The notes: generated from the sequence alone by a model not told the origin. A stretch of DNA of 64,000 bases from Thermoplasmatota archaeon (GCA_036148495.1 JAYYHK010000036.1:2125-66124), one strand, 5' to 3'; positions 3,301 to 64,000 are shown, counted from the stretch's first letter. Program-made: numbers and translations.

Positions 3301-3731
3301 TGATTATAACTCTCACAGAGTTCCTCTTTAATGTTTTAGTGGCAGCTCAAGGTAGTTCAACACTTCCTCTGGCAGATACTTCCTCATTTATTGATGAAAA
3401 GTTTGTTTGGATGGTAACGTCTCCATTAGAAGTTGGCTCCATATTGTTCATAATCTCAGTTGCATTATTGTTTTTGAGGAAATATGAATTTTCTGAAGTA
3501 TTCTTTTGGTTTTCTCTTATTTTCATTGTATGTCACCTTGTCTTTGATGACCGTTCAATTGACTTGGTATTTCCCGAAGCACTAGGAGGAATTAAAGCCC
3601 AGATGACTTACATCAAATTGATGCTAATTGGATTGCTGATTATGCTATCGTTAAAGTATAATCCAAAGGGTTTACTTCCTGAAGTTCCATATCGTCCCGA
3701 GCGTCCAAAGGAGGCCGTGAAAGATGAGTAA
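309..3731 (+). CDS. Fused branched-chain amino-acid ABC transporter permease (LivH-like + LivM-like) with an internal TM2-domain-like insertion
   Basis: The LivH signature RLGRRMRAVADNPELAASSGINV sits at about aa 322. The LivM-like core starts LNIHTGMTGLVNFG...YFAIITISLGEILRI at about aa 715. Between them, around aa 470-520, lies ILGVLFGWAGAHHISQGRNSRGCLMLVLT, which resembles a TM2 domain. The single 1,140-aa ORF is multi-pass hydrophobic and is followed by two Liv-type ATPase genes. Confidence 0.8.
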   Translation: MIKADLINNWNSLTGLVQRLIIVFFLFLDSYIGLIYQRGSLNFIDLILLGSLPPDFVWLLQTFQMICMGFLLVKILFDDVPPSRLRTVIMCLSPFLLVLHVLLSLHILMLGQGLVANLTFNLGTIGISTLTWSSTYLAIAVGCTLTYSVQRYGNFAQSEFFMLGMYVGIAFMWTDLLFPISEAPSDGTLVWSLFAYVVLGAFVLTGIAGVIIDRLVFKGFRDSKSSSDVMMIASLGVAMILRSLIYLRFGSNTKRFVPDKDWMSSEQRWEISTHTAKINLGNLNWPVIEESTTNYAYNNAFLPIVIFTSVFLLVILLNYTRLGRRMRAVADNPELAASSGINVERVQMASAFLSAGISGLGGAVFGLTVLFSPQTAFTLLLPAFAVIVLGTIGSVQGAIVASLIIGFVRAISEPVLSGIGNPLERTNYFALAGVTPYAIIIAILLIMPEGIGKAYEEWNIERIRKRAAVRRKLSATKSTILGVLFGWAGAHHISQGRNSRGCLMLVLTISSYILGMSLSFIRENSFAGQGKLSPPEGLNSNMHETWLSVVEREQTLIEILGLFGDILWPWVPIFIWLFAIYESYLIYNNQYKDLLQNPKARVMDFIDKYTVLLSERFKSSKDRFQFAPSESKYTDYVNEYLHSINSFVGGKFSQLSSTFYEKVGAEYGKESEKGSNALFLVFLLILILVVSWLPSVNDFTKLLQVSNFLITLSIFLLLAFSLNIHTGMTGLVNFGVIFFVAIGAIIVGVLTASSDVFGYDWPIFPALIVAVIVGGFFGWLLAYPTARLRTDYFAIITISLGEILRILLMGEPLLRVGGNASAIGIQSYPLPLQEWWFCGSETPVSSTGTKYSPLACSADPEIDSMARKVAELLEVTGIDLEGKAAPYMLLLSIMGIFTALVVWKVLDILFKSPWGRILRSIREDEEVAQHHGHDIFTHKARSLALGGAIAALAGAFWAWKLTGFQPSFMSPAKSTFLVWAAFIIGGAGNNKGMLIGAMIITLTEFLFNVLVAAQGSSTLPLADTSSFIDEKFVWMVTSPLEVGSILFIISVALLFLRKYEFSEVFFWFSLIFIVCHLVFDDRSIDLVFPEALGGIKAQMTYIKLMLIGLLIMLSLKYNPKGLLPEVPYRPERPKEAVKDE

Positions 3732-31000: not shown

Positions 31001-31743
31001 GAAAAATAGTAACTCGCTACATTGCTCAAAGAAGAAAACTTCCTAATAAGAGGAAAGGATATATCCAAAAAGCAAAGATTGGAGGTCACAATGTTTACTT
31101 GCATACTGGAGAGTACGATGATGGAACTCTTGGTGAAGTTTTCATCGACATGCATAAAGAAGGTGCAGCTTTCAAGGCATTGACTAATGCATTTGCTATA
31201 GCAGTAAGTCTCGGTTTACAGCATGGTGTGCCTCTGAAAGAATTCGTAGATGCTTTCGTATTCACAAGGTTTGAACCTAATGGGCCTGTAGTAGGTAATG
31301 AAAGAATTAAAATGTCAACAAGTATTCTAGATTACATATTTAGAGATTTAGCAGTTAATTATCTTAACAGAAACGATTTATCTCATGTTAAGCCAGAAGA
31401 CCTAAAGCCAGATATTGTAAGAAGCGAAGGTGAAGCAGAAACTGAACAGAATTTAAATTCTGGATTGACTCCAGCTGGTGATGCAAGTGATGGACATGAA
31501 ATACAATTGACATTAGATGATATGGATGTTTCTTCAGCAGATACTTCATCATTCCAATCTACTGTTACAGATTTATCGACGGCAAATGCACCTCTTCTGT
31601 CAGGAGACAGTACCATAGTTAAGGAAGCCGAAAAATATGGGTTTGAAGGAGATCCGTGTCCTGAGTGTGGCCAATTTACATTGGTCTCAAACGGAAGCTG
31701 CTTGAAGTGCGTAAGTTGCGGTTCGACAACTGGTTGTTCATAA
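28054..31743 (+). CDS. nrdJ: Adenosylcobalamin-dependent (class II) ribonucleoside-diphosphate reductase
   Basis: A conserved C-terminal region ...[31 protein letters not shown]...FTRFEPNG and a terminal CPECG...CLKCVSCG zinc ribbon are present. The protein is 1,229 aa. It uses a TTG start with a G-rich ribosome-binding site; a first ATG start further downstream is possible. Confidence 0.93.
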
Positions 31744-38352: not shown

Positions 38353-38429
38353 CTGGGCCGGTGGTCTAGGGGTTATGACGTCGCCCTTACAAGGCGAAGA
38401 TCGGCGGTTCGATTCCGCCCCGGCCCACC
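38353..38429 (+). tRNA. tRNA-Val (anticodon UAC) with genomically encoded 3' CCA
   Basis: The acceptor stem GGGCCGG/CCGGCCC, T-arm GGCGG-TTCGATT-CCGCC and anticodon arm GUCGCC-CUUACAA-GGCGA fold by hand into a cloverleaf, followed by ACCA. Confidence 0.9.
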
Positions 38430-38448
38430 ATTCTCGTCGTAAGCAAAA

Positions 38449-49453: not shown

Positions 49454-50395
49454 TTATACAGAATAAGTGTATTGTATTGCGCCAGCTATTCGAGCTCTAA
49501 CATCTGCATTACCAGACAAAGAAATTTCTAAAGTCCAATTCCCACTACTTCCAGCTACAGAACCCATAATGTGTTGATTAGTTCCTGGGCTAAAAGTTTC
49601 GATTAGTACTTCGGCTCCTTCATGATCGCGTAGTATTAGCTCCCCGCTTCCAGAGCTGCCTATGTCAGCCTCTAGATAGTATACAATGTAATTCCAAGGT
49701 CCGTATCTTTCATGACCGCCATTCGCAAATTGAGTATCATAGACTCCAAAGTCAGGTCCGATAAATTCTTCATCGAAAAGGTCTCCTCCTCTGCAGAAGT
49801 ATGAATTTCCAGTGTAGCCGCTGCCATAGTTTCCTAGATTCATAATCAGTACTAATTCACCATTAGAGTTTGTATATTCTAAATTATTAAACCATCGTGC
49901 ATTTTTATCAAAAGTATACGCCATGAATGCTCCAGAGTCAGCGTTGGCATTAATCTCAGCTACAGATTCAGTAATGTCAATTACACTTGCTCTGAATTTT
50001 TCACCATACATACTGAATTCCCAGCTCTTGTCCATTTCTAACGGAAAATTGGCAATGTTTTGCGGGATATTGTTCTCGTAGACAGAAAAATCAGACATTT
50101 GAACACGTCCTAATGCAGGATTATAATTAAGGACAGCATGCCTTTTTGCGTCATCGAGATTTCCAGCTCCTACATAGTAGTCCGAATCATCGTCATCTAC
50201 AGAAACGACCATAGTGGTGGAAAATTGCTTATCATCTACAGTAACTGAGTACTCCCAGAAATCTCCTTTATTCCAGTTCGGAGAGTACAAGTACAAGCCA
50301 TCTTTTTCATCACCAAAGAATCCATTTTCTAAGCAACCGCTGCTCACAGTAGTCATGAAAATAACAATTGTTACTATGAATGAGGTCTGCTTCAT
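49454..50395 (-). CDS. Hypothetical secreted lipoprotein-like protein
   Basis: A signal peptide ending in the lipobox-like VSSGC, a Gly/Asn-rich sequence, and no TM segment. Confidence 0.55.
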   Translation of the reverse strand: MKQTSFIVTIVIFMTTVSSGCLENGFFGDEKDGLYLYSPNWNKGDFWEYSVTVDDKQFSTTMVVSVDDDDSDYYVGAGNLDDAKRHAVLNYNPALGRVQMSDFSVYENNIPQNIANFPLEMDKSWEFSMYGEKFRASVIDITESVAEINANADSGAFMAYTFDKNARWFNNLEYTNSNGELVLIMNLGNYGSGYTGNSYFCRGGDLFDEEFIGPDFGVYDTQFANGGHERYGPWNYIVYYLEADIGSSGSGELILRDHEGAEVLIETFSPGTNQHIMGSVAGSSGNWTLEISLSGNADVRARIAGAIQYTYSV

Positions 50396-50419: not shown

Positions 50420-51514
50420 TTATAGTTCACTATATCCTTCTAGTTTGAAATGCTCTCTTGCCTCAGATACAGTGTAGAAAGATCCAGTGATTAATGTTTT
50501 TTCACCAGTTGACGATGAAATAGCATCTTTTACGCTTATAAATTTCCTACATTTCACATTAAGTTGATTACATACTTCGTAAATATAATCGGATGAAGCA
50601 CTTCTTTCACTATTTAGATTACAAGCCGATACAGTGCAATCTGCCGGCAATTTAGCTATAAATGCTTCAATGTCTTTATCAACAAGCATTCCCAAGATTA
50701 CTTCTTTGTAGTTATCATCTATTGATAATATGTGTTCTATAGCTTGTTCGTTATGTGCAGTATCAATTGTAAAATTTAGATGCTTTTCTTGTCTACCTGG
50801 AATGTTCATAATAATTGGTTCAACCGAAAATTCGAGTACGTTAGTACACGCCTTAATCCAATCTGCAATTTTCAGTCCCTTGATAATTTTCTTTGATTCA
50901 GGTATGTACTTGTGATATTTTTCGTCCCACCCAGTTATTACTGTGGCGTTTTTTCTTACAATTTTAGCTTTTGTTGCAGCAATTTTTTCTAAGCTATCAC
51001 CTAAATAATCTACGTGATCTAATCCTAGCGTAGTTAAGATTGCAATCTCCGCATCTGCAACATTTACTGCATCCCACTCGCCTCCTAAACCAATTTCCAT
51101 TATAGCATAATCCACATTTTTACTACTAAAATAAATGTAAGCGAGAGCTGTTAAAGCTTCAAAATAGGTTATTCGAAGACTATTCTGTTCAGACAGCATC
51201 TTTATTTTTAATAAATACGTAGCAAACTCCTTTTTGCTTATTATATTATTACCAATTTTAATTCTTTCCCGTACGCTGTGGATATGTGGGGACGTAAAGC
51301 ATCCTATCTTTCTGTTAGTTTGCATTAAAGTATGATTTAGGTTGAAACAAGTGCTCCCCTTAGCATTTGTTCCACCTACTGCTATAATTCTCAGTTCGTT
51401 TTGCGGATTTCCAGCCAAATTCATAAGCTTCTTTATTCTTTCAAGACCTGGCTTAATTTTGTTCTGGTTTAATTCATTTAGCCAAAGTAGTGTTTTTCCA
51501 TATTCTTTAGACAT
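50420..51514 (-). CDS. Folylpolyglutamate synthase / dihydrofolate synthase-like Mur-ligase family protein
   Basis: The P-loop VGGTNAKGST is present, and the length of 364 aa fits the family. Confidence 0.75.
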   Translation of the reverse strand: MSKEYGKTLLWLNELNQNKIKPGLERIKKLMNLAGNPQNELRIIAVGGTNAKGSTCFNLNHTLMQTNRKIGCFTSPHIHSVRERIKIGNNIISKKEFATYLLKIKMLSEQNSLRITYFEALTALAYIYFSSKNVDYAIMEIGLGGEWDAVNVADAEIAILTTLGLDHVDYLGDSLEKIAATKAKIVRKNATVITGWDEKYHKYIPESKKIIKGLKIADWIKACTNVLEFSVEPIIMNIPGRQEKHLNFTIDTAHNEQAIEHILSIDDNYKEVILGMLVDKDIEAFIAKLPADCTVSACNLNSERSASSDYIYEVCNQLNVKCRKFISVKDAISSSTGEKTLITGSFYTVSEAREHFKLEGYSEL

Positions 51515-51519
51515 ACTAA

Positions 51520-51810
51520 TTATTCAATTGATTCCCATTCAACTGTATCTGGAGTAACAATTCCTTGATCGTTTAAGATTCCTCTAAAATTGTCTGGTGA
51601 AACGCCTGCAATCTCAGCACCTTTAGTTAATGTGGCCTTTCCTTTCTTATATATTTCGACTGCAGAAGCGTATCTAAGGTGATTCTTCTTTTCTATCATA
51701 AATCTAAGAGATTCTTTAACAACGTCTGACCTGCTACTGAAATGTCCAGAATCGACGAGCGCTTCTATCTGCATGACAAGTATCGGAGGTAGGGAATAGG
51801 AATTACTCAT
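51520..51810 (-). CDS. Small DNA-binding protein with a ribbon-helix-helix N-terminus and a UPF0175-like C-terminus
   Basis: ILVMQIEALVDSGHFSSRSDVVKESLRFMI resembles CopG, and LTKGAEIAGVSPDNFRGILNDQGI resembles UPF0175. It is divergent from the giant surface-protein gene. Confidence 0.55.
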   Translation of the reverse strand: MSNSYSLPPILVMQIEALVDSGHFSSRSDVVKESLRFMIEKKNHLRYASAVEIYKKGKATLTKGAEIAGVSPDNFRGILNDQGIVTPDTVEWESIE

Positions 51811-51890
51811 ATAATAACTATTATTAACTATTATTAATAATTATTCACTAAGCTTTATATGCTACTTTCTGGTGAAAATATTGATACGTT
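51811..51890. promoter_or_regulatory. Divergent promoter region carrying a CTATTATTAA direct repeat (x2) and a TTTATAT TATA box about 31-37 nt upstream of the giant-gene ATG
   Basis: Read directly: ATAATAACTATTATTAACTATTATTAATAATTATTCACTAAGCTTTATATG. Confidence 0.4.
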
Positions 51891-54800
51891 ATGAGCCTTA
51901 ACCTAAAAAATTGGTTTGCTAACACATTAGCGCTCGCGCTAATATGCTTTGGATTTCTCTTAATCACAGGGGTAGCTTCAGCAGATGCTTATGATCATAA
52001 AATGACTGTAAGTCCTAGCTCTCAATCCGGTGATCCAGAAGAACAATTACAATACACTATAACCATAGAAAATACAGGTGACAATGATGACACATATGAT
52101 ATGAGCGTAACTAACTCTACCATTCCTACAGGTTACACGGCATTCATTTTGCCATCTACCTTGTCAGTTGAGGAAGATGAGTCTGGAACTGCTACATTGT
52201 TCATTAAAATAGCCAACAGAACGACAAATACAGCAGAGGGTGGAGATACTGCTCAAATTAGTTTTAAGTCTAAATCTCAGAACAGCGACAGTGGAGGCAA
52301 AACTAAGACACAGACGGCATCCTTGACGGTCAATAATGTATACGGAACAACTTTGACACCAAGCGAAGGTGAAAAAACCGTTGATCCAAATGAAAATGTT
52401 AAGTTCATGGTCAGCGTTAAAAATTCAGGGGGCAATACAGAAGACAGTGTAACAATTTCTTTCACTGCAAATGGTGTAGATTCATGGGATATAACTCCTC
52501 AGCCATCAACATTAACCCTTGACATAAACGAAGTTGGCTTCTTCAATCTTTCAGTAACTCCAGATATCGAAGCTGTAGCTGGTCTGAAAAGTATTTCAAT
52601 TATCTCAACTTCAGAGGATGGTCAAACGGTTTCTTCAACATCTGTAACCGTTAAGGTTAATCAACTTCCTGCGCTTCAAGTAGATAAAGTCGATTCAAGT
52701 TCTAAAGACGTAGAGGCTGGAAAGCGTGTTTATTACTCCTTTGAGGTAACAAACAAGGGAAATGCAGTCGATACCTTCAATTTGGAAGTTGACACTTCAA
52801 GTTTACCAGTTGGTTGGGATGCTTCGCTTGATCAGGACAAGATAAGTAATCTAGGAGTTGACGATAATATCACTCTTACAGATGTACTGGTAGTCAAAGC
52901 CCCTGAGGATGCAGCTGCTGACGTAGAAACGCAAATTATAGTAACTATTTCTTCCGATTACAATGCATCTATCAATTCTACCTACACATCAAGAACAACA
53001 GTTCTTCAAAATTATGAGCCAAAATTAGCAATCCAAGGTGAAGATACCCAATCTGCAAAGCCAGAGGATCAAGTAAACTTTACAATCAAGATTACTAATG
53101 ATGGTAATGGTGAAGATGACATTTCATTATCTTTGATTGGAGGTAATGCAAGCTGGGGTCAGCTTGGAGATTCGGCTTTTACTCTTGCAGCAGGTGCAAA
53201 TGATACTACCACATTAAGAGTAACTCCTCCAAAAGGTACCGAGGCAAAGAATGGATATACCTTAATTGTTAAGGCTACATCCGAAGATGATTCTACAATA
53301 ACCACTAGGAACATATTCATTAATGTTCTTCAAATATATGAAGTTTCAGTTCAGGTTTCCGGTGAAAGCTCAAAGAAGGGAGATCCAGGTGATGAATTAA
53401 TTTTTGAAATGACGGTAAAGAACAAAGGTAATGGAGAAGACACGGTATCTCTGTCTTTAGAAGGAGCAAAAGCTTCTTGGGCATCCATCGTCGACGAAGT
53501 TGAACTGGCAAGTGGAGAAAGTAAAACAGTCAACTTAACTGTAAACATCGATGACGATGCAACAGTAGGAGATAACGATATTATTGTGAACGGTACCTCT
53601 GAAGATAATCCTTCGGCGTATGACACAGGAACAGTAAAAGTTTCAGTTAATAAGCAGTTCAAGGTAGATGTTGTAGTTTCTTCCAAAAGCGGAGATCCTG
53701 GCACTACTGTTGAATACGATGTTAGAATTCAAAATGAAGGCACCGGTAATGATACTTTTACAGTTAATGTAGATGATTATCCAGCAGGCTGGTCAGTAGA
53801 TCCTGTTTCTTTCCAAGTAGAAGATATTCCTGCAGGCGGTGAGAAATTAGTAAAGTTGAATGTCTCAATTCGATCAGGTGAAGATAACAAGGCTTTTACA
53901 ATCAACTTAACAGCTTCATCAGATGAAGCACAGAAAGAAAATCCTCCGAAATATGCTAATAAAACAGTCAGTATTATTACAATTGTAAATCAAGAATATT
54001 GGATTGACTTGTCTGTTGCCGATGCTGACAGAACAGTTGAAGCTACAGTAGGAGTTCCAGTATCTGTAAAGATAGATGTGAGTAACCTAGGGACTGGTGA
54101 CGATATAATTGCTATGACTAATACGCCTCCAGAGGGTTGGACAGGTGTTGACTTCAGCAACCCTTTCGTTAACGTGGCAGAGAATGGTCAAGAGGAAGTA
54201 ACTCTGACGATTACGGTTCCGGAAAGTACTTCGAAAGGAGATTATGAACTAGTTGTTAGAGGAGTTTCAGATTGTGACGGTTGTGAAAATGGTACTAAAT
54301 CAACAGATTCCATTACTTTAACAGTCAAAGTCGATTTAAGCAGGGGTGTTCAAATTAGTACTGATGTTACTGAAATTGAAAAGTTACCTGGTTCCACTGC
54401 ATCTTTCACAATAGACGTCAAAAATACTGGTGATGGATCTGATAATTTAATTGTTTCAATTCTTAATGATGATTTGGGCTGGGCTTCAGCCAACACCACA
54501 TCTCTCACCCTTGACAAAGATCAAACTGGTTCAGTTACTGTAAATGTAACGTTACCAGAGTACAATCTAGATAGCTTATCTAATCAAGAGAGAAATGCAC
54601 TACAAGCCAACAGCTATTCTATAACTGTGAAGGTTAAGTCCGGTGGTGATTTGGAAGTTAGCGATACAGCTTCACTTCAAGTAGATATAGGACAGATTTA
54701 CGGAGCCAGTGTAGAAATTGTAGGGAATTCGGTAATCACTTCCTACCCTTCAACTGAGACTCAAGCATCTGAGAGGACTGAAAAGTTTACGTTCAAGCTT

Positions 54801-57224
54801 ACAAACACGGGTAATGGCCAAGATACAGTAAACGCTGAGACAATTGCTACTACATATCCAGATGATTGGAATGTAGAACTTTTCCAAAATCCATCATGTT
54901 CAAGTTCTTTTTCAGGTTCAATAGGTGCAGGACAATCTAAGTATCTTTACCTGTGTGTAGAACCTGATCAAGATTCAGATATTGGAAATTACAGTGTTCT
55001 TACGGAGTTTTCACCTAATTCAGGAATTGATCCTGCGGTTCAGGTATCAGTAAATCTCGAAGTAGCTTCTCCGCGAAGAGAATTAGATGCTACAGCCATT
55101 GATAGTTCAAAAGAGATATATCCTGAATATGAAGGAAGTACAACTCAAAACAGTGTAAAATTCAAGGTCAAATTGGATAATACAGGTTCGAACGATGATA
55201 TTTTCATTCCAGAAGTTGAATCTACTCTAGAAGACGGCTGGACGGTAACTTTCTTCCAAGACAGTTCGAAAACACAGTCTTGGCCGAACTCTGGTGTTAC
55301 TATTGAAGAAGGAGAACTTGATGATTTATGGGTGTTTGTTTCCGTAAATGATGAAGCTGAAGTGGGTAATGAAACCATCAAAATTTCTGTAAGAAATGAA
55401 GAAGATGACCCTAATGCACGACAAGAGATTGATTTAGTGGTTATTATCCAAAGACCGGAAATAGTTGTTAAGCAGAGCAATATTCGAATCGAAATTGATG
55501 GAGTATTTGGTAATGCTTCAGAGGTTAAAGACGGAGATACTGTAGTTGTTTATGTTGATGTTGAAAACACTGGTACTGCAGATGCAGATGACGTTAACGT
55601 TGAAATTTACTATTATCCGAAAAAAGCACCAACAACTCAGCAGGAAATTGATGAATTGTTGATTGCAGGATTTGAATTTGATGATTCTAAAAATACTTAC
55701 ATTTACCAGTTGTACGGAAGTAATGGTAGATCAACTAACATTAAAGAAGGAAATTCAAAAGAGATTGTTTCAGATGATTGGTTAATTAAGGGCGGCGAAT
55801 GGTATGTGGAAGCCAGGGCTGATTACGATAAAAACAATGATAATGGCGAAATCCTAGAAGAAAATGAGAACAATAACGATGCAAGGTATTCAGAATTGTT
55901 GAGGGTGAAACCAGATTTACAGATCACTGCAATGCGTGTTGATAGTAAATATGCAGGCGATAACTCTGGAACTCCTAATGTGGACGACACTGTAACTTTT
56001 ACAGTTACTGTAACGAATGCTGGAGCAGCAGATGTCGACAACAGTCGTCTGTACATAACCGCTGACAGCAGCACAGACAACGTAGTATTGAGAGATCGTA
56101 CAAACCAGGAATATGTTTTGTTTGATTTAGATGCAGGTGAAACTCAAGAGGTTCGCTTCAGATGGAAGGCTACTCTTGAAGAATGGACTGCTTTTAGTGC
56201 TGAAGTAAACCCAGTTTGTGATGATTTCAATATTCCAGACTTCACTTGCGAATCCGATGGAGATGGCTTTTCTTCAGACACTGGCCGCATGTTCGACGAG
56301 CTCGGTAGATATTCTGATAATGTTTGGCCTAGAACTGGTGTTTTTGAACAAAGTGGTTCTCCAGTTGAATTTTCAGTGTTGCCAGACTTCAAAATTACAG
56401 ATGTAGATATGGATCCAACGAATCCACAAGTAGGCGAAAAAGTTGATATTACTGTAACTGTTAGAAATATCGGCAACGCAGACTGGCAAATATCAACTAA
56501 GCCACTTCAAGTGAAATTTGAAGATGGAGCAGGTACTGAGCTAACTCAACAAATAAGTGAATCAATCGATAAAGATGCCACAACAGAGGTAAGTTTCAGT
56601 TGGACAGTTCCTGACAAAGATAACAAGGATTTCTTGACTTTGAGCTGGACCATTGATGCAGGTACAGGAAGTTTTGAGATTCAACAATGTAATGATTGTG
56701 ACACTACCAATACTGGAGATGGAACAGATAATGACGAATTCATCATGGAAGATTTTGAGCTTCAACTTCAGGCAGTCCTTGGAGAGATTGAATTTATTAA
56801 CACTTTATCTGAAAGAGAATTAGTTAAAGGTGTACCTTTACTATTACCAATTTTATTCTTGGTAGGATTAGTCGCTTTAGCTATTCCAGTTGTTTTACTC
56901 CGCAGAAGGTCCGGAGGCTCAACAGCAGCAGATGATTCAGAAGAATCAAGCGATGAGGAAAGTTCTTCTGAAGAGCCAGTAGCAGCACCTCCATCTAAGA
57001 TTAGTGTGGCAATAGTGTCTACAATAGACGGTAAAACTGCAAATGTTAAAGTTCCTTCGAACATGCCAGTGAATAAACTGTTGCAAAACTGTGTAGGTAA
57101 ATTCCCATTACCTCATGCTAACTTTGCAGTAATGTTGAATGGTGTCGCTGTAGACAATAACTTAACATTAGCAGATGCTGGTTTGACAGATAAGTGTCAA
57201 GTAGATTTAGTACCACTAGAGTAA
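51891..57224 (+). CDS. Giant (1,777 aa) surface protein: signal peptide, about 13 CARDB/NEW3-like repeats, a C-terminal TM helix, and a cytoplasmic acidic Ser-rich linker followed by a ubiquitin-fold-like tail
   Basis: The signal peptide MSLNLKNWFANTLALALICFGFLLITGVASA is followed by 13 repeats at roughly 110-150-aa spacing of the motif h-x-V/I-x-N-x-G-x-x-x-D (ITIENTGDNDDT, VKNSGGNTED, VTNKGNAVDT, ITNDGNGEDD, VKNKGNGEDT, IQNEGTGNDT, VSNLGTGDDI, VKNTGDGSDN, LTNTGNGQDT, LDNTGSNDDI, VENTGTADAD, VTNAGAADVD, VRNIGNADWQ), often followed by P-x-GW. The TM helix is VPLLLPILFLVGLVALAIPVVLL, then RRRS. There are many N-x-S/T sequons. Confidence 0.9.
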   Translation: MSLNLKNWFANTLALALICFGFLLITGVASADAYDHKMTVSPSSQSGDPEEQLQYTITIENTGDNDDTYDMSVTNSTIPTGYTAFILPSTLSVEEDESGTATLFIKIANRTTNTAEGGDTAQISFKSKSQNSDSGGKTKTQTASLTVNNVYGTTLTPSEGEKTVDPNENVKFMVSVKNSGGNTEDSVTISFTANGVDSWDITPQPSTLTLDINEVGFFNLSVTPDIEAVAGLKSISIISTSEDGQTVSSTSVTVKVNQLPALQVDKVDSSSKDVEAGKRVYYSFEVTNKGNAVDTFNLEVDTSSLPVGWDASLDQDKISNLGVDDNITLTDVLVVKAPEDAAADVETQIIVTISSDYNASINSTYTSRTTVLQNYEPKLAIQGEDTQSAKPEDQVNFTIKITNDGNGEDDISLSLIGGNASWGQLGDSAFTLAAGANDTTTLRVTPPKGTEAKNGYTLIVKATSEDDSTITTRNIFINVLQIYEVSVQVSGESSKKGDPGDELIFEMTVKNKGNGEDTVSLSLEGAKASWASIVDEVELASGESKTVNLTVNIDDDATVGDNDIIVNGTSEDNPSAYDTGTVKVSVNKQFKVDVVVSSKSGDPGTTVEYDVRIQNEGTGNDTFTVNVDDYPAGWSVDPVSFQVEDIPAGGEKLVKLNVSIRSGEDNKAFTINLTASSDEAQKENPPKYANKTVSIITIVNQEYWIDLSVADADRTVEATVGVPVSVKIDVSNLGTGDDIIAMTNTPPEGWTGVDFSNPFVNVAENGQEEVTLTITVPESTSKGDYELVVRGVSDCDGCENGTKSTDSITLTVKVDLSRGVQISTDVTEIEKLPGSTASFTIDVKNTGDGSDNLIVSILNDDLGWASANTTSLTLDKDQTGSVTVNVTLPEYNLDSLSNQERNALQANSYSITVKVKSGGDLEVSDTASLQVDIGQIYGASVEIVGNSVITSYPSTETQASERTEKFTFKLTNTGNGQDTVNAETIATTYPDDWNVELFQNPSCSSSFSGSIGAGQSKYLYLCVEPDQDSDIGNYSVLTEFSPNSGIDPAVQVSVNLEVASPRRELDATAIDSSKEIYPEYEGSTTQNSVKFKVKLDNTGSNDDIFIPEVESTLEDGWTVTFFQDSSKTQSWPNSGVTIEEGELDDLWVFVSVNDEAEVGNETIKISVRNEEDDPNARQEIDLVVIIQRPEIVVKQSNIRIEIDGVFGNASEVKDGDTVVVYVDVENTGTADADDVNVEIYYYPKKAPTTQQEIDELLIAGFEFDDSKNTYIYQLYGSNGRSTNIKEGNSKEIVSDDWLIKGGEWYVEARADYDKNNDNGEILEENENNNDARYSELLRVKPDLQITAMRVDSKYAGDNSGTPNVDDTVTFTVTVTNAGAADVDNSRLYITADSSTDNVVLRDRTNQEYVLFDLDAGETQEVRFRWKATLEEWTAFSAEVNPVCDDFNIPDFTCESDGDGFSSDTGRMFDELGRYSDNVWPRTGVFEQSGSPVEFSVLPDFKITDVDMDPTNPQVGEKVDITVTVRNIGNADWQISTKPLQVKFEDGAGTELTQQISESIDKDATTEVSFSWTVPDKDNKDFLTLSWTIDAGTGSFEIQQCNDCDTTNTGDGTDNDEFIMEDFELQLQAVLGEIEFINTLSERELVKGVPLLLPILFLVGLVALAIPVVLLRRRSGGSTAADDSEESSDEESSSEEPVAAPPSKISVAIVSTIDGKTANVKVPSNMPVNKLLQNCVGKFPLPHANFAVMLNGVAVDNNLTLADAGLTDKCQVDLVPLE

Positions 57225-57233
57225 TCACAAGCA

Positions 57234-58412
57234 ATGCTTGATGTTTTAGTCGTTGGTGCTGGGCCGAGCGGTTCTAGAACCGCTTGGAATTTTGCCGAAG
57301 AAGGCTATAAGGTAACTTTGATAGATAGGGCTGAAATTATCGGCGAACCTTGTCAGTGTGCAGGTTTAATTACTCCCAGAACCTTTGAGTATTTAGGATA
57401 CCAGCGACCAATATTGCAAGAGATGGACGGTGCCAGACTATGGGGCCCCAAGGATTCATTTTTAGAATTCCAAGCCTCAGAAACTAAAGCCTTAGTTATA
57501 GACAGACCTGATTTGGATCGCTCCATAGCAGAAAAGGCATCAGAAGCAGGCGCCAATGTTCTTCACGGCCATACATATTTGGGACACGAAAAGATAGAGG
57601 GCGGAATTGAAGCCAGAATAAGAAATAAATCAGAAAAATTTAGTATTCAAACCAGGCTACTCGTTGGCGCAGATGGTCCATTATCCAGAGTAGCTAAAAA
57701 TGCAGGAATTAGTGGTAAAAGGGAGATATTGACTGCATTTGGTGCAGATGTTAAAGGATACAAAGGTAAAGATACTCATGTAGATCTTTTTGTTGGTTCA
57801 GAGCTTGCACCACGTTTTTTTGGTTGGGGAATACCCACAGGACCTAACGAAGGTCGTATAGGTATAGCAACAACTTTACCTCATAAGCCAATGCCTTTCT
57901 TTAGAGATTACTTTTTGAAGGGTGCACCATCCAAATTGCTCGGAGGCGCAAAAATTATCAATTTGATTAGTGGCTTGATTCCTTTTGGAGTTGCCAGTCC
58001 AAGTTACACTGACAATATTATTTTGACAGGCGATGCTGCGGGTATGGCAAAGCCAACATCAGGGGGTGGGATTTATTCAGGTTTAATTTCAGCAGATGCA
58101 GCTTTTGAAGTAGCTTCCAAGGCTTTGAATTCGGGTAATCTGAGTTCAGCCAACCTGAGCGAATATCAAGCACTCATAGTGAATAGAATAGGAGGAGAAT
58201 TAACTAAGGGTAGTTACTTGAGAAAAGCTTTCTTGAGTTTGAACGATAATCAATTGGCTGAAATCATATCAATCTTAGGTGAACCCAAAGTTAAAAAAGC
58301 TATAGAAAAAACGGGAGATTTAGATTATGCTTCTTTAGCTGCTTTTTCTGTACTTAAAACGCAACCAAAATTGATTAAATTTGCCCCTCATCTTTTGAAG
58401 CCATTTATTTAG
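57234..58412 (+). CDS. Geranylgeranyl reductase-family flavoprotein (second paralog), 9 nt downstream of the giant surface-protein gene
   Basis: MLDVLVVGAGPSGSRTAWNFAEEGYKVTLIDR...CAGLITP, 392 aa. Confidence 0.85.
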   Translation: MLDVLVVGAGPSGSRTAWNFAEEGYKVTLIDRAEIIGEPCQCAGLITPRTFEYLGYQRPILQEMDGARLWGPKDSFLEFQASETKALVIDRPDLDRSIAEKASEAGANVLHGHTYLGHEKIEGGIEARIRNKSEKFSIQTRLLVGADGPLSRVAKNAGISGKREILTAFGADVKGYKGKDTHVDLFVGSELAPRFFGWGIPTGPNEGRIGIATTLPHKPMPFFRDYFLKGAPSKLLGGAKIINLISGLIPFGVASPSYTDNIILTGDAAGMAKPTSGGGIYSGLISADAAFEVASKALNSGNLSSANLSEYQALIVNRIGGELTKGSYLRKAFLSLNDNQLAEIISILGEPKVKKAIEKTGDLDYASLAAFSVLKTQPKLIKFAPHLLKPFI

Positions 58413-59150
58413 TTCGGGATAGGTTTCTTCCTCTTCCAAATAGAAAACTACAGATAGTCCAGCAAATATAACAGTAAGAGAAATTAGTATGTAAAGAGGC
58501 CATTTTGGTATAGGTTTCTTTACTCCGAAAGAAGAGTCCGGAATTATTCCATCGACTTTTAATGAGTCGAGATTAATGTTTCCAGGGTAATTTTCAGATA
58601 GATTAGTAGTGGCGTTTGTCCATTCCTCCATACTCCAATATCCTCTGGACTGAAGCACTCTTTCCGTCGCATTAAATTGAAAATTCATTGAGAATCTAAC
58701 AAAGTATGTTCCTTCTTTAGTATCCTCATCAGTGTTTATGTCAAATTTAAGTCTCACAGTTTGGTTGACTTCGATATTTTCAATACTGAAGCTTGCACTT
58801 TCTGAATTCGGGCTATCTGAGCACTTTTCTTCCTCGTTCTTATATTTCCAGCAATTCTCAGAGATAGTGGGCCTTTTATCTGAATTAATGCTGCCCAAAC
58901 TCTCAGATTCATCAATATCAGCTCTGTGGTAAATTTCAGCAACAATCTGAACTCCAGTAAGATTTTCAATATACCTATTTTTAATATCAAGAGAAAAAAA
59001 TCCGCTTTCGCCTGGTTCTAACTGAGGTGTTGCGAAGTTGTGAAAATTAGGTATATTGCCAGGATGACTTGTATATTCATCAATTTCAGATTGAACTGCA
59101 GGTAGCATCATAATCATCAAGACAATGCCTAGAGCCTTTCTCATTACCAT
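58335..59150 (-). CDS. Secreted, C-terminally TM-anchored hypothetical surface protein
   Basis: The start is trimmed to MVMRKALGIVLMIMMLPAVQSE (signal peptide), because the longer ORF-track start overlaps the divergent gene. Multiple N-x-S/T sequons are present. The C-terminal TM helix is LYILISLTVIFAGLSVVFYL, followed by a charged tail. Confidence 0.5.
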   Translation of the reverse strand: MVMRKALGIVLMIMMLPAVQSEIDEYTSHPGNIPNFHNFATPQLEPGESGFFSLDIKNRYIENLTGVQIVAEIYHRADIDESESLGSINSDKRPTISENCWKYKNEEEKCSDSPNSESASFSIENIEVNQTVRLKFDINTDEDTKEGTYFVRFSMNFQFNATERVLQSRGYWSMEEWTNATTNLSENYPGNINLDSLKVDGIIPDSSFGVKKPIPKWPLYILISLTVIFAGLSVVFYLEEEETYPELNKWLQKMRGKFNQFWLRFKYRKSS

Positions 59151-59226
59151 GTCAGATAAGCATCCCTTTAAAACGAGTTTCACACTTCGGCAGATAGAAT
59201 TTATAAGGGATAGTCTTTGAGAAATC

Positions 59227-60828
59227 ATGAGAATAGCCAGAGTTCTAGTATTATCTTCAATTTTTTTTTTGGTTATCATCGGTTTTTTTGTTGTAAATGC
59301 GGATGCAATGCCCGTTTATGTTAAAGATTTTCAAGGAGAGACATTGACTTTAGATGTTGAGCCAAGTGATACTATTGAAAATGTAAAGGCTAAAATCCAA
59401 GACATTACTGGGACTTCTCCAGCTGATCAACGTTTGATTTTTGCTGGAAAAGAATTAGAAGACGGTAGAACTTTGTCCGACTATAATATTCAGACAGAAT
59501 CAACGTTACATCTTGTTTTGAATTATAATTTTACTTCAGGCTTGCATGTGGATGAAGGCCAAGATATACTTATAACTCATTCTCATATTTGGTTAGAGGG
59601 CGATTTTTTGATTGACGGAAATCTGTCCATCGAAAATTCACATATTAATGTAAATCGCTCCTTAGATATGACTATTTCTGAAATTAGAATAAATTCTACA
59701 GGAATTCTAAACATACATAATTGTACATTTTCCACAGTTAATGATGCGAATTTATCTTACAGTATGTACACTATAGTTTCTGATGCCGGTTCGCTCATTA
59801 TAACCGAATCAAATATAGAATATTCTATGATTTGGCTTGTCGGTGGTCAAGCTAGTATTTCAGATACTTCAATCAATGGCCAAAGTATAGTAAACTATGG
59901 AATATTTTCAGAAGATACAATTTTGAATTTAAGTAATGTCTCGATTTCAGGTTATAGTCTTGGCCTTCGTTCAATTGGTACTGTCCCGTTCCAAGAACAA
60001 GTAACATTTTTCAATTGTTCATCATGGATGACTCAAGAATGGTGGGTTAATTTCACCGCAATAGATACAACAACAGGATTACCAATTACCGGTTTTCAAA
60101 CTAGGCAGTGGGATGTAGATGGAACAATGATAGGTAGTTGGAACTGGGCCAAAGAATTTGAAATTAATTCAGATGGTATACGAATAGACCATACTTCAAA
60201 CTTCTCGGCATTCGCAAATTTTGGTTTTGCTCACGTTGATGACGAATGGTCTCAAGTCATAACCGAAAATACTGTACTTACACGCTATTTTAACCTTAAT
60301 TTATCCTCAATAGCTTATGAATCAGCAGAAGTTTATGCATCAGGGGAAGTGTGGGAGCCAGGTCAGAAAGTTCCTAAATGGTCAGAGATTAATGTGCTAG
60401 TTACAATTGCTAATCCTACTGATTATAATTTTTCAAATTTATTTCTGGATATGGATATTAATAATAACAAAGGTTTTGCCAGAGCTAGTTTGTCACTTTC
60501 CCCTAACAGTGAAACAATTGGTAACATTTCTTGGCAGGCCTCTTTAGAAGGCCCTTTGTCACTAAAGATTACTACTTTTCTAGAGCTAAGCTCATCAGCT
60601 AATCGGACGTTGTCAATGTCCAAATTCGTGGAAGTAGGCAGTAAAGATGTTGAAGAAAAAGAATCAGGAAATATGCTTGTTTTACTTGCAATTTCTATCA
60701 TTTTGGCTGCATGTTCCTTCATTATATATTCTGGCGTTGAAGAGGCGGATGAATTATCTGAAGAAGAAATAGCCTTAGCTTCAGGAAGTAACAAATCAAA
60801 TAAGATTGGCTCAGATGAAGAAGAGTGA
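59227..60828 (+). CDS. Secreted protein: signal peptide, eukaryote-like ubiquitin domain (no GG tail), right-handed parallel beta-helix-like region, C-terminal TM helix and acidic tail
   Basis: Residues 28-99 read [71 protein letters not shown], about 75% identical to eukaryotic ubiquitin. The downstream sequence is rich in I/N/S/G with beta-helix-like periodicity. The C-terminus is [22 protein letters not shown] followed by an EE-rich tail, and about 15 N-x-S/T sequons are present. Confidence 0.85.
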
Positions 60829-61811
60829 ACGTGTCAGCGATAATATTAGGTATTGAGTCAACAGCCCATACAGCAGGCGTTGGAATTATTACTTCAGAGG
60901 GCAAAATTTTGTCTAATCAGAGGTCGATGTATATTCCGGAAGAAGGTGGAATCCATCCACGTGAGGCTGCAAGGCATCATTCCGACACTTTTCCAATATT
61001 GTTTGAGAAAGCCTTTCAGGAAGCTAAGTTGAAGCCTAATGATATTTCCCTAGTTTCGTATGCTAGAGGTCCTGGTTTAGGGCCCTGTCTCAGAACAGGA
61101 GCTACTGCAGCCAGAGCTTTTGCTTACACTCATGATATTCCCCTTATTGGAGTAAATCATTGTGTGGCTCATTTAGAAATCGGGTTACTTGAAGGGGCAA
61201 CAGATCCGGTTTTACTTTATTTGTCTGGTGCCAATACTCAAGTTATAGCGTATGCTTCTGAAAAGTATAGGGTGTTTGGTGAGACTATTGACATTGGAAT
61301 TGGCAATGGTTTAGATAAATTTGCCAGAGAAGCTGGAATGGGTTTTCCAGGCGGTCCGAAAATTGAAAAATTAGCGAAAGGTCCAGAACTATTGGATTTA
61401 CCTTATTCAGTAAAAGGGATGGATATGGCCTTCTCTGGTTTAATGACTGCAGCGAAGTCTAAGTTAGATTCAGGCCACTCTATTGAAACTGTCACATATT
61501 CATTACAAGAGCATGCTTTTGCAATGTCTTGCGAAGTTGCGGAAAGAGCTCTGGCACATACTGGAAAGACTGAATTAGTATTAGGAGGAGGTGTAGCATG
61601 TAACGAGAGACTAAGAGAAATGGCTACTATTATGACTGAGGAACGAGGAGTCAAGTGTTTCATACCTTCGAAAGATTTGTGCGTTGATAATGGAGTAATG
61701 ATTGGCTGGTTAGGCCACCAAATGGTCAGTGGAAATTATGAAATAACTGATGAAGATAACAGAGTTCATCAAAAATATCGTACAGATATGGTAGAGGTAA
61801 CTTGGAGATGA
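60825..61811 (+). CDS. kae1: tRNA N6-adenosine threonylcarbamoyltransferase Kae1
   Basis: [16 protein letters not shown]... is the Kae1/TsaD N-terminus. The metal-binding His pair (HCVAH) is present, and the length is 328 aa. Confidence 0.95.
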
Positions 61812-62410
61812 TTTTTAGAGGTGCTGAAGCAATTGTTGAAAAAATAGACTGGCAAGGGTTCCCAGCAGTATCGAAGATTCGAAATGAAAGGTCTTACAGA
61901 CATCCGGATTTAGAAAAGAGATTGGTGAAAGAGAGACTGAGAAGCGAGTCTCGAATTATTGAGCGTTTATTATCAGATGGCATTTCAGTTCCATCAATTT
62001 ATGAGGTTAATGTAGATAAGTCTCAAATAATCATGGAATTCATTGATGGTATTACTCTCGAGAAAGGACTTCGAACTGATAATTTCGAGGAATATTTGGT
62101 TTCTTCAGCCAAATTATTGTCACAAATACATTCATCAAGCATAGTCCATGGAGATCCCACAACTAGCAATTTTATGATTTTAGATAAATTATATGCAATA
62201 GATTTTGGACTTTCCAGTTTTGATGACGACGCTGAATCCAGAGCTTCAGATCTTCGGGTTTTTTTGGAATCTTTGGAAGCTCATCATTCTGAGATATTAG
62301 GGAGAGATATTTTCTTGGCTGCATACTCTAAATGGTCTCAGTCGAAAGAAGTACTCAATGCTTTGGAAGTATTAGAGTTACGTGGCCGGTATAATTTAAT
62401 GCGAGGTTAG
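61802..62410 (+). CDS. bud32: KEOPS kinase Bud32/PRPK (Kae1-associated kinase), separate from but overlapping kae1
   Basis: The catalytic IVHGDPTTSNFM and IDFGLS motifs are present in a minimal 202-aa kinase. Confidence 0.85.
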   Translation: MEMIFRGAEAIVEKIDWQGFPAVSKIRNERSYRHPDLEKRLVKERLRSESRIIERLLSDGISVPSIYEVNVDKSQIIMEFIDGITLEKGLRTDNFEEYLVSSAKLLSQIHSSSIVHGDPTTSNFMILDKLYAIDFGLSSFDDDAESRASDLRVFLESLEAHHSEILGRDIFLAAYSKWSQSKEVLNALEVLELRGRYNLMRG

Positions 62411-62455
62411 GCTCACTGTAATAAATCCCCCCTACTAATACTCAATAGGCTCACT

Positions 62456-64000
62456 TTGAATATAATACGAAAGTTCTTCGCACTAGCTTTTCTCTCAATG
62501 ATTGTTATGTCAATCCCTGACGTAGAAGCAGACAAGGAACCTGTATGGAGCTGGTCTTCATCTAGCCCCGTAACTAACGTCGCAATATCATCAGATTCAA
62601 TTAATCTTTCTGCAACATATGGTCAATCAGTATCATTGTGGAAAAATGGAACATCTTCCCCTTATAATACAAAGACTCTCTCGCAAGGTATTAGTTACAT
62701 GGAAATGTCATCTAATGGAATGTATGTTTTAACTGGAGAAGAAACAAATAAGTTGACTCTGTGGCAAGATGGAACTAAAGTATGGGATAAAGGCGGATTT
62801 CTCAATGGCTTGTACGGGATAGATATTTCCTCAGACGGTTCGAATATAACCGCAGTAGATCGTAGAAATGTTTATTTCTTTGATAAAGGAAGTAATAGTG
62901 AGGTATGGAATGAAAACTTTGCGACTCAAGAAATGTCTACTGTAGCAATTTCTCCAGATGGTAGATATATTGCTGCAGGAACCTTTGATGGGAATGTGTA
63001 TGTTTTTTTAACATTAGATAAGGATGATGTATGGTACCATTCTGATGCGCTCGATGGTAAAATAACAGATATCTCTTTTTCAGGAGATAGCTCACATTTA
63101 ATTATTGGAACAGAATCTGGACGAGTTCATGTATATTCTTCGGAGGGAGGAGACCCTATGACAATGTTTCAGCCTAACGAGGTTTCATGCGTTGCGGCCG
63201 GATTAAATTCTAAGTATTATATTTACGGAACTTCTGAAGGCATGTTGACGCTTTTTGATGGCATTCTTGGAGCAGATATATGGCAAAAAAATATTGGTGG
63301 TGAGATTAAAGATTGTGTGTTCAATGGAAGAAGTACATACGTTTTTGCTGGTTCAGATAATAGAAAAATTGTTTTAGCCAATGTTACTACAGGTGATGAA
63401 GTTTGGAGAGTAAACGCAGTTAGTTCAGTTAATTCAGTTTCTCTATCGGACAGAGGTGAAAATTTATTGGTTGGTACAAATTCAGGTCTATCAATTTATT
63501 ATGAACAGTTGTTAGATAATCAGGCTCCAGTTGCAGAAATAGATCAAATAAATCCTACTATAGCTTTGCCTGGTGAATCTGTTACTTTCGTAGGTTCAGC
63601 TACAGACATAGATGGTTTTGTTTCAAATTACCATTGGTCTTCATCTATAGATGGTAATCTTTCCAACCTCAGTAATTTCACAATTTCAAACTTAACAATG
63701 GGTTTGCATGTAATTTCATTTATGGCTCAAGATGATGAAGGTAGGTGGGGTATTCCTGTCTCAATGGAATTAGGTGTTGGTGATTTTCCCGAAGTTTCAA
63801 TTTTATCAGTTTCTAATTGCATTGATTTGGAAAATTGTTTGATAAGCTTAGGTGATACACTTTCAGTCATTGCGATTGCTTCCTCTTTGACATCAGACGA
63901 TATTTCAATCGAAGAATATGAGTGGATTTCAAATATAGATGGCTTAGTTTCTAGCAGTTTAAATTTATCAACTACAGATTTGAGTCTAGGTTCACACACA
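62456..64000 (+). CDS. Secreted beta-propeller (PQQ/WD40-like repeats) plus PKD/Ig-like repeat surface protein; 3' end lies outside the window
   Basis: The frame is open from the Bud32 stop to the window end. A TTG at 62456 would give the signal peptide MNIIRKFFALAFLSMIVMSIPDVEA; the first ATG is at 62498. Propeller-like blades include YVLTGEETNKLTLW, IAAGTFDGNVYVF and LIIGTESGRVHVY. Repeated roughly 95-aa modules follow (YHWSSSIDGNLS...GLHVISFMAQDDEG and EYEWISNIDGLVSS...). Confidence 0.7.
   Translation, partial: MNIIRKFFALAFLSMIVMSIPDVEADKEPVWSWSSSSPVTNVAISSDSINLSATYGQSVSLWKNGTSSPYNTKTLSQGISYMEMSSNGMYVLTGEETNKLTLWQDGTKVWDKGGFLNGLYGIDISSDGSNITAVDRRNVYFFDKGSNSEVWNENFATQEMSTVAISPDGRYIAAGTFDGNVYVFLTLDKDDVWYHSDALDGKITDISFSGDSSHLIIGTESGRVHVYSSEGGDPMTMFQPNEVSCVAAGLNSKYYIYGTSEGMLTLFDGILGADIWQKNIGGEIKDCVFNGRSTYVFAGSDNRKIVLANVTTGDEVWRVNAVSSVNSVSLSDRGENLLVGTNSGLSIYYEQLLDNQAPVAEIDQINPTIALPGESVTFVGSATDIDGFVSNYHWSSSIDGNLSNLSNFTISNLTMGLHVISFMAQDDEGRWGIPVSMELGVGDFPEVSILSVSNCIDLENCLISLGDTLSVIAIASSLTSDDISIEEYEWISNIDGLVSSSLNLSTTDLSLGSHT

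Follow-up and report, generated by a model that had tools for sequence, protein, structure and literature searches.

Do the secreted, membrane-anchored proteins encoded at one end of an archaeal contig mark a hypervariable surface island, or do they belong to the fixed part of the chromosome? This question is raised by a block at ~51.5-64 kb of a 64,000-nt stretch from a Thermoplasmatota archaeon (GCA_036148495.1, JAYYHK010000036.1:2125-66124; hereafter the window, along whose full length all positions are counted), which an initial annotation had taken for a hypervariable cell-surface or adhesion island. The window belongs to the core chromosome of an archaeon of Marine Group III (MGIII) and is ~96% identical to the metagenome-assembled genome (MAG) RS352. 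Comparison with related loci shows that the block is fixed and order-wide, and that its variability is real but intragenic, residing in one swappable 5′ cassette and not in gene content. The cassette lies at the start of ubq533 (59227-60828, + strand), predicted to encode a 533-aa type I surface glycoprotein, and in some lineages it includes a eukaryote-type ubiquitin. Taken as a whole, the locus is probably a constant MGIII block with a captured ubiquitin that would be borne on the cassette and displayed on the cell surface at the tip of the protein. The gene map was built from an open reading frame (ORF) listing, translation, and Pfam and NCBIfam family scans. Full-length homologs of ubq533 were found in marine metagenomes and in MAGs labelled Marine Group III euryarchaeote, CG-Epi4 or Thermoplasmatota.

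The ubq533 protein consists of a signal peptide, a ubiquitin, a beta-solenoid, two beta-sandwich domains, a transmembrane (TM) helix (aa 483-501) and an acidic tail, an assignment that combines the PF00240 match, hydropathy and a structural model of the body. The ubiquitin module (59308-59526, + strand; aa 28-100) scores 85.4 bits against PF00240 (cutoff 25.4; E = 2.3e-24) and is 73% identical to human ubiquitin. In a full-length model built from 14 close homologs, with a predicted local distance difference test score (pLDDT) of 57 overall and local values of 70-85 in the module, it superposes on many solved ubiquitin chains over 71 residues with a root-mean-square deviation of 0.8-1.0 Å. Thirty archaeal copies of the module share 45-67 of 72 residues with human ubiquitin (63-93%), the copy in P0048 differing at only five positions (67/72 identical). 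Such near-identity to the eukaryotic protein points to a recent capture rather than to archaeal ancestry. The residues D16, S22 and Q28 may resemble those of stramenopile ubiquitin. A scan of viral contigs for ubq533 gave no match, and hence no viral vector was identified. The initial annotation had singled out ubiquitin-fold modules as the unusual part of the block, and in this respect it was right.

Conservation among the 30 archaeal copies is uneven. The hydrophobic positions of the fold core are kept in ~100% of them, the L8/I44/V70 recognition patch in ~50%, and the lysines in 53% (K48), 23% (K11) and 10% (K63). None of the 30 keeps Gly75-Gly76, the module running directly into the body (...LVL(R/N/Q)YNFT...). 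Being fused and lacking the Gly-Gly end, this ubiquitin cannot be conjugated. Families of E1, E2, E3 and deubiquitinase enzymes were not matched in the main ORFs of the block or in ten large window ORFs, a scan that did not extend to most smaller ORFs or to whole MGIII genomes. The module is under purifying selection, with a dN/dS of 0.05-0.24 that is similar to that of the remainder of the gene, and its G+C content at third codon positions (GC3) is 0.23, against 0.26 in the body.

The module starts at ubiquitin Met1, encoded directly 3′ of a predicted AxA-type cleavage site between NADA and M, which would give a mature protein beginning with MPVYVK. Hydropathy revealed no TM helix between the ubiquitin and nine N-x-S/T sequons of the body that are invariant in 14 orthologs, and the ubiquitin is therefore placed on the side of the membrane that carries the glycosylated ectodomain, outside the cell. 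For this and the other surface proteins of the block, both signal-peptide cleavage and glycosylation are predicted from the sequences. Translation starting at the ubiquitin Met, which would yield a cytoplasmic, tail-anchored protein, was considered and rejected: the upstream signal-peptide codons are under purifying selection (nonsynonymous pN 0.08-0.11 versus synonymous pS 0.51-0.61) and resemble those of orthologs that have no ubiquitin.

The remainder of the protein, here called the body, belongs to a small family. A search with the non-ubiquitin part returned only 25 matches among 1.84 billion representative proteins, including four full-length distant members without ubiquitin (P0121, P0124, P0126 and P0131). 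An AlphaFold model of the body alone, with distant ubiquitin-free orthologs in the alignment, reached a pLDDT of 88.9 and a predicted template modelling score of 0.77, and places two beta-sandwich domains after a short, ~160-residue beta-solenoid. A Foldseek search of the body against the PDB gave no global match (TM-score <=0.25). Only local beta-sandwich likeness was detected, to transglutaminase C-terminal domains, complement MG domains, arrestin and the Wzt carbohydrate-binding domain, from which no function can be deduced. Judged by the model, the body has the appearance of a stalk, or of a scaffold for binding, and not that of an enzyme.

Related loci were gathered by contig look-ups and by a scan of one genome per GTDB species (alignment A3), which returned 30 loci, including MGIII single-cell genomes and CG-Epi1. 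Ubiquitin-bearing alleles of ubq533 were found in the window and in loci L011, L001/L013, L012, L041, L042 (CG-Epi4) and L043. Orthologs at the same position in L005, L006, L008, L009, L014-L019 and L022-L040 lack the ubiquitin, and in these the signal peptide joins the body directly. The ubiquitin is absent from all deeper MGIII lineages and from the CG-Epi1-like epipelagic genomes (L014-L019 and L022), and is confined to some epipelagic lineages.

This distribution does not follow the rest of the gene. The identities of the N-terminal and C-terminal parts are 76.8% and 95.0%, respectively, between the proteins of L017 (no ubiquitin) and L012 (ubiquitin), and 83.2% and 77.3% between those of L017 and L014, both without ubiquitin. 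Nucleotide sliding-window comparisons of L043 and L012 with L017 gave identities of 0.83-0.97 through the neighbouring gene p314 and on across the intergenic region to about -50 relative to the start codon, and 0.85-0.97 again from about +600 through kae1, with 0.0-0.7 between. A tree of the solenoid (residues 104-260) cleanly parts ubiquitin-bearing from ubiquitin-free alleles, while trees of residues 261-480 and of kae1+bud32 interleave the two. The breakpoints and the conflict among trees indicate a ~650-bp segment that exists in two forms and has been recombined between close relatives, ~90% identical on either side of it. This cassette extends over approximately 59180-59850 (+ strand), from 50 promoter-proximal nucleotides through the signal peptide and, in alleles that have it, the ubiquitin, and on into the beta-solenoid for ~100 codons; its boundaries are approximate. 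Close relatives that differ only by the cassette offer a ready-made natural comparison for the role of a surface ubiquitin.

The explanation that we consider probable runs as follows. A eukaryotic ubiquitin gene would have been captured in a subset of epipelagic MGIII and inserted into the gene of a beta-solenoid protein, between the parts that encode the signal peptide and the mature N-terminus. Once exported and freed of its signal peptide, the protein would begin with ubiquitin Met1 and carry the ubiquitin extracellularly, at that end of a glycosylated stalk which is distal to the membrane. There selection may preserve the fold of the module while the classical recognition surface drifts, tips with and without ubiquitin representing alternative alleles of the ~650-bp cassette that homologous recombination would move between close relatives. 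Viruses, grazers or eukaryotic cell surfaces are examples of the external partners that the distal tip presumably encounters; the ubiquitin may serve as a very stable, non-conjugatable tip that alters what this end presents, and both cassette types may persist owing to such interactions. A more specific proposal, unlikely in our estimate, is that the displayed ubiquitin acts by molecular mimicry toward eukaryotes, engaging ubiquitin-binding proteins of grazers after ingestion or the surfaces of phytoplankton, or that it acts as a decoy tip against viruses, with the cassettes under frequency-dependent selection. Mimicry, if true, would be the first extracellular ubiquitin mimicry in Archaea and would give a molecular handle on interaction between archaea and eukaryotes in the plankton.

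Several points weigh against this explanation. Signal-peptide cleavage and topology were read from hydropathy and motifs, and the low score of the full-length model (pLDDT 57) leaves the packing of the ubiquitin on the solenoid unreadable. The trees are neighbour-joining trees of short alignments, and one gain of the ubiquitin followed by two or more losses is hard to separate fully from cassette exchange; the sharp nucleotide breakpoints favour exchange over gain-then-loss. Finally, the loss of the I44 patch in about half of the lineages argues against simple ubiquitin mimicry toward eukaryotic ubiquitin-binding domains.

The uneven conservation also suits a different idea, in which the ubiquitin, folding fast and resisting proteases, is a passive folding or stability cap that aids export and folding and shields the exposed end of the beta-solenoid, with no specific ligand. 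Strict conservation is limited to the fold core, as a cap would require, while the recognition patch and the lysines drift, and the ubiquitin-free alleles work in sister lineages, so that the module is dispensable. An N-terminal ubiquitin fusion improves the yield and folding of its partner, as in the natural fusions of ubiquitin with ribosomal proteins. A neutral cap, however, leaves unexplained why two cassette types are maintained and exchanged among close relatives, and why divergence reaches ~300 nt into the solenoid alongside the ubiquitin; the dN/dS of the module speaks for constraint beyond a bare fold, although it is not decisive. On balance we regard a mere cap as rather unlikely.

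A displayed, permanently attached ubiquitin also has to be weighed against a released one, which would be cut off after export and act on competitors as a diffusible toxin or signal, in the manner of the Bacteroides proteins BfUbb and BoUbb. BfUbb is a eukaryote-like ubiquitin exported by a type I signal peptide that kills related strains by binding a periplasmic peptidyl-prolyl isomerase (PPIase) (PMC11467351), and some of the archaeal copies keep ...LVLRL(S/G) at the junction with the body. The junction sequence varies, the Gly-Gly occurs in no copy, every copy is fused in frame to a conserved, TM-anchored body of ~430 aa, and no protease or immunity gene adjoins ubq533. Archaea are also not known to have a periplasmic PPIase target of the Bacteroides kind. 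A released effector thus appears very improbable.

The reading of the block as an island, varying in content between relatives with kae1 and folC conserved on its flanks, has in its favour that several large, secreted, TM-anchored and sequon-rich proteins are clustered here and that the N-terminal cassette of one gene is variable. The initial annotation had itself named identical, conserved content of orthologous loci in related genomes as the finding that would speak against an island, and this is what the synteny comparison returned. Every window gene was mapped by tblastn against all loci, those on sufficiently long contigs being informative. All informative loci, from ~30 species and from metagenome contigs, have the genes in the same order and orientation, even where protein identity falls to 25-50%: DUF655, p313, folC-like, RHH, giant, GGR, p314, body protein, kae1, bud32, propeller. 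The single exception is the most distant, high-GC locus L006, in which another gene takes the place of the propeller. Given this constant gene content in orthologous loci, the hypervariable-island reading fails. Nor are the surface proteins faster-evolving than their neighbours: identity to L001 is 85% for the giant, 76% for p314, 72% for ubq533 and 74% for the propeller, compared with 92% for kae1, 90% for GGR and 63% for the folC-like protein, so that the surface proteins diverge no more than folC. The GC content is flat (0.35-0.41 across the block and 0.34-0.41 in the window, of which the mean is 0.37), the block contains no tRNA gene, Pfam scans of its main ORFs matched no integrase or transposase family, and the cytoplasmic tails of its surface proteins rank among its most conserved sequences. 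A hypervariable island is accordingly a reading to which we give hardly any credence.

Three observations were made alongside this comparison. The folC-like Mur-ligase gene (50420-51514) is the fastest-evolving of the block, at 63% identity to L001 compared with 72-100% for its neighbours and 100% for the adjoining RHH protein. Two loci filed under bacterial names, L014 (JBJLEF010000011.1, "Pirellulaceae bacterium") and L021 (CAJXAT010000187.1, "uncultured Flammeovirgaceae bacterium"), carry the MGIII block in full synteny with 64-100% protein identity, and look like archaeal contigs mis-binned into bacterial MAGs. The high-GC loci L006 (ERZ23498639 scaffold_2462) and L009/L010 (Logan SRR3496313 and SRR3496315) have the same block, with a body protein at 25-30% identity and with the ubiquitin-like tail of the giant and the tail of p314 almost unchanged; they may represent a deep sister lineage of MGIII.

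That the ubiquitin fusion is false, arising from an assembly chimera or from contamination with eukaryotic DNA, which is rich in ubiquitin and is co-sequenced with archaeal DNA in marine metagenomes, has a negligible chance of being true, given that the same in-frame fusion occurs in at least 29 protein clusters from independent ENA, JGI, NCBI, Logan and Tara assemblies on contigs of up to ~67 kb, and that the copies are mutually diverged and of archaeal composition.

In the preferred reading, the fixed block would encode four type I membrane glycoproteins, with housekeeping genes (a GG-reductase paralog, kae1 and bud32) lying among them. Membrane-anchored, probably glycosylated surface proteins do cluster here, as the initial annotation had stated, and an N-terminal signal-like segment together with a C-terminal TM helix is evident from hydropathy in the giant, p314 and ubq533. 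The TM anchor of the propeller protein lies beyond the window end and was seen in the 96%-identical conspecific locus L011. The number of proteins had been overestimated: four share features of the design, not five, with a single small secreted TM protein (58335-59150) where two had been counted, and the geranylgeranyl-reductase-family protein (GGR), which had been drawn into the surface group, is a cytoplasmic FAD enzyme. The short charged tail ascribed to all of them holds for ubq533 (acidic, 32 aa) and loosely for p314, but not for the giant (~109 aa) or the propeller ortholog (~95 aa). Sequon density in the surface proteins is 1.24-3.0 per 100 aa, 3-7 times that of the cytoplasmic proteins of the window, in which it is mostly 0-1 and typically near 0.4 per 100 aa. 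A clear excess over expectation was found only in ubq533 (16 observed versus 7.7 expected); the count in the giant matches the expectation from composition (22 observed versus 23.1 expected). The absence of a PGF-CTERM signal was borne out, no such motif being visible at the C-termini read directly. The last 140 aa of the giant and p314, the two sequences compared with NCBIfam for this purpose, gave no match of any kind. The M14 peptidase to which the design had been likened (15038-17398) is real (PF00246, E = 1.2e-40) and has the same design of signal peptide, TM helix and basic tail.

The largest of the four proteins, the giant (51891-57224, + strand), is a type I membrane protein of 1777 aa. 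It consists of a signal peptide, 13 CARDB-type immunoglobulin (Ig)-like repeats, a TM helix (aa 1650-1668), an acidic and serine-rich linker and a C-terminal ubiquitin-like domain. Pfam matches were to CARDB (1.7e-30), NPCBM_assoc, FixG_C and DUF11, and a V.N.G motif recurs 13 times at a spacing of 104-150 aa. The cytoplasmic tail is ~109 aa long, and its last ~76 residues (...PSKISVAIVSTIDGKTANVKVPSNMPVNKLLQNCVGKFPLPHANFAVMLNGVAVDNNLTLADAGLTDKCQVDLVPLE) form the ubiquitin-like, beta-grasp domain (56988-57221, + strand), which was recognized by profile comparisons and ends in ...LVPLE, with no Gly-Gly. Across the order this domain is nearly invariant, with a mean column identity of 87% (alignment A4), compared with values down to ~45% in the ectodomain.

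The relationships of the tail domain are distant. It scores 22.3 bits against TUG-UBL1, just below the cutoff of 23.3, and YukD was detected faintly in L006 only; NCBI names one fragment of the giant tail as EsaB/YukD family. A PDB profile search gave weak matches to ubiquitin, SUMO and ISG15 (E = 0.014-1.5). Alignment with the ubiquitin modules of ubq533 by hhalign gave a probability of 78.6% and was in register over 67 columns, whereas BLASTP of the giant tail against the ubq533 ubiquitin gave E = 1.5, that is, no detectable relationship. Since the two are related at the profile level only, they are not treated as one acquisition, and the sequence comparisons indicate that the giant tail is an old, separate ubiquitin-like domain. 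A search with the giant-tail profile returned only contig-end fragments of the same protein, with no sign of the domain on other proteins.

Conserved cytoplasmic segments are also present in the other proteins. The propeller gene (62456, with a TTG start, to 64000, + strand, running past the window end) encodes, by Pfam, a WD40/PQQ-like beta-propeller and PKD domains behind a signal peptide. Its ortholog in L011 is ~855 aa long and contains further PKD domains, a TM helix and a ~95-aa cytoplasmic tail ending in a CPxC...CPxC zinc ribbon that is conserved across the order, including the high-GC outgroups. The small type I membrane protein p314 (58335-59150, - strand; hydropathy), ~271 aa from Met44 of a longer ORF, has a signal peptide, an ectodomain without a known family, a TM helix and a basic amphipathic tail, and gave no Pfam or NCBIfam match. 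From the juxtamembrane segment through the TM helix to the tail it is conserved throughout the order, L006 and L009 included. The long ORF of p314 reaches 59279, overlapping the start of the next gene, and is probably not used. As the most constrained parts of these proteins face the cytoplasm, the proteins look like fixed envelope components with intracellular partners. In the proposed explanation all four would dock to conserved cytoplasmic partners in this way, rather than acting as interchangeable adhesins. For MGIII, which have not been cultured and about whose cell biology almost nothing is known, this defines an order-wide set of envelope proteins with conserved cytoplasmic modules.

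The giant is bordered by a divergently transcribed gene for a small, putatively DNA-binding protein of 96 aa (51520-51810, - strand), as described initially. The protein matches UPF0175 above the cutoff (31.2 bits; cutoff 27.9) and RHH_8 weakly (20.7 bits; cutoff 25.4), with the NCBIfam models ParD and CdrS below their cutoffs. It is constant in position, and its identity is 98-100% in the epipelagic clade, 86-92% in deeper MGIII and 59% in L006. The intergenic region between the RHH gene and the giant is 80 nt long and alignable across 16 lineages (alignment A5). Within it, a 34-nt core (51826-51859), CAACTATTATTAATAATTATTCAC(T/G)AA(G/C)CTTTATA, is the same in 15 of the 16 lineages except at two variable positions and for isolated substitutions in single lineages, such as the T that the window has in place of the leading C; synonymous sites between the aligned lineages are saturated. 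Direct repeats at 10-nt spacing (51812-51841) and an inverted repeat (ATTATTAA/TTAATAAT) abut a TATA-like TTTATAT ~38 nt upstream of the giant ATG. The core is read as a probable operator and promoter, and the RHH protein probably binds the 10-bp tandem repeats as a candidate operator at a promoter shared by the divergent genes, where it may control both itself and the giant-GGR unit. The pairing of the genes and the core are conserved across the order, so a role as regulator is supported, though unproven; the candidate regulator-operator pair is directly testable.

The GGR gene (57234-58412, + strand) starts 9 nt after the giant stop in the window, and the distance is similarly short in all loci. 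Its product matches TIGR02032 (204.6 bits; cutoff 158.8) but falls far below the equivalogs for the lipid reductase acting on digeranylgeranylglycerophospholipid (NF041160, 121.6 versus 780; NF041080, 87.6 versus 580), a profile that fits a divergent member of the family and hence the label of paralog given to it initially. Downstream, ubq533 overlaps kae1 (TsaD/Kae1; 60825-61811, + strand; PF00814, E = 6.3e-82) by 4 nt (60825-60828), and kae1 overlaps the gene for a bud32-like small kinase (61802-62410, + strand; RIO1, ABC1 and Pkinase matches) by 10 nt (61802-61811). This layout suggests two transcription units, giant-GGR and ubq533-kae1-bud32, the latter possibly including the propeller, with p314 between them on the opposite strand. 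Two KEOPS/t6A genes thus seem to share a transcript with a surface glycoprotein gene, possibly with translational coupling, an arrangement kept across the order. The 3′ ends of GGR (+ strand) and p314 (- strand) overlap convergently by 78 nt (58335-58412), and by ~69-80 nt in L001, L005 and L006.

On the 3′ side of the propeller, in L001 (15872-21614), L041, L042 and L043, lie genes for ArsR, a 180-aa protein of unknown family, an ABC-2 exporter pair, a GXGXG protein, a polyprenyl synthase and a NUDIX protein. By analogy with work on Haloferax, a polyprenyl synthase near a divergent GG-reductase and glycoproteins hints, speculatively, at synthesis of a dolichol-type glycan carrier, on which the GG-reductase paralog may act. 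At the other end of the block, a gene for a 313-aa protein with an N-terminal hydrophobic segment (p313; 49454-50395) is a constant upstream neighbour in all MGIII loci, at 47-96% identity. Pfam and NCBIfam scans of this protein gave no match; possibly it is one more membrane protein belonging to this neighbourhood.

Elsewhere the window encodes housekeeping proteins, which speaks for core chromosome: a class II ribonucleotide reductase, the alpha and beta subunits of PheRS, AspRS, DnaK and Pus10. PEPCK and the M14 carboxypeptidase are also encoded, and the sole tRNA of the window is tRNA-Val (38355-38430). The ribonucleotide reductase (28054-31743; B12-dependent) is above typical length at 1229 aa and has a C-terminal TSCPD domain. 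An ORF of 1140 aa at 309-3731, with many hydrophobic segments, has BPD_transp_2 (branched-chain amino acid ABC permease) as its sole Pfam match and is possibly a fused permease.

What is surprising in this block, and open to direct testing, is a surface ubiquitin cassette and an order-wide, cytoplasmic ubiquitin-like tail; the island that had been proposed was an ordinary claim, and wrong. A ubiquitin of up to 93% identity, fused to the predicted outer tip of an archaeal surface glycoprotein, clearly represents a gene captured from eukaryotes or from eukaryotic viruses, for a use unrelated to conjugation. The literature searched for ubiquitin in MGIII or Marine Group II yielded no description of ubiquitin in MGIII; a survey of the archaeal ubiquitin toolkit (PMC4327156) lists only a UCH deubiquitinase and RING E3 genes, from a single-cell genome of Marine Group II. 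Public annotation of the ubq533 homologs says only "ubiquitin-like protein". The only parallel known to us is the secreted ubiquitin toxin of Bacteroides.

Like BfUbb and BoUbb, ubq533 carries a eukaryote-type ubiquitin in a prokaryote, directly behind a signal peptide, non-conjugating and patchy among strains or lineages (PMC11467351). Unlike BfUbb, which is small, free, released and taken up by target cells, the ubq533 ubiquitin is the N-terminal domain of a 533-aa TM-anchored protein, with no evident release signal, target or immunity factor, and its host is a single-membrane archaeon. With eukaryotic polyubiquitin, Ub-eL40 and Ub-eS31 it shares an in-frame, N-terminal ubiquitin starting from Met1, at 63-93% identity; these precursors, however, are cytosolic, cut by deubiquitinases after Gly76 and conjugatable, whereas ubq533 lacks the RLRGG end, is permanently fused and is predicted to be exported. 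Beta-grasp proteins are also known from archaeal genomes in the ubiquitin systems of Caldiarchaeum subterraneum and the Asgard archaea and as modifiers of the SAMP/Urm1 type. Those modifiers are cytoplasmic, have a Gly-Gly end and are encoded together with E1, E2, E3 or JAMM genes (PMC5654768, PMC4327156), in contrast to ubq533, which lacks the Gly-Gly, is predicted to be extracellular and has no matched conjugation gene in its block.

The tail of the giant resembles EsaB/YukD and TUG-UBL1 in being a small, non-conjugated, cytoplasmic beta-grasp domain on or with a membrane protein, but it is sub-threshold in Pfam, has no type VII secretion context and forms the end of a 13-repeat Ig-like protein. 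In their signal peptides, tandem Ig-like repeats, probable N-glycosylation and C-terminal anchors, the proteins of the block are comparable to archaeal CARDB/Ig-repeat proteins and to PGF-CTERM/archaeosortase substrates, from which they differ in having no PGF-CTERM motif and in carrying long, conserved cytoplasmic modules after the anchor in place of a short basic stub. Finally, the block shares with the variable surface-protein islands of planktonic archaea and bacteria a clustering of surface glycoprotein genes and recombination at an exposed domain; unlike in those islands, content and order are fixed across the order, and variation is confined to one intragenic cassette of ~650 bp.

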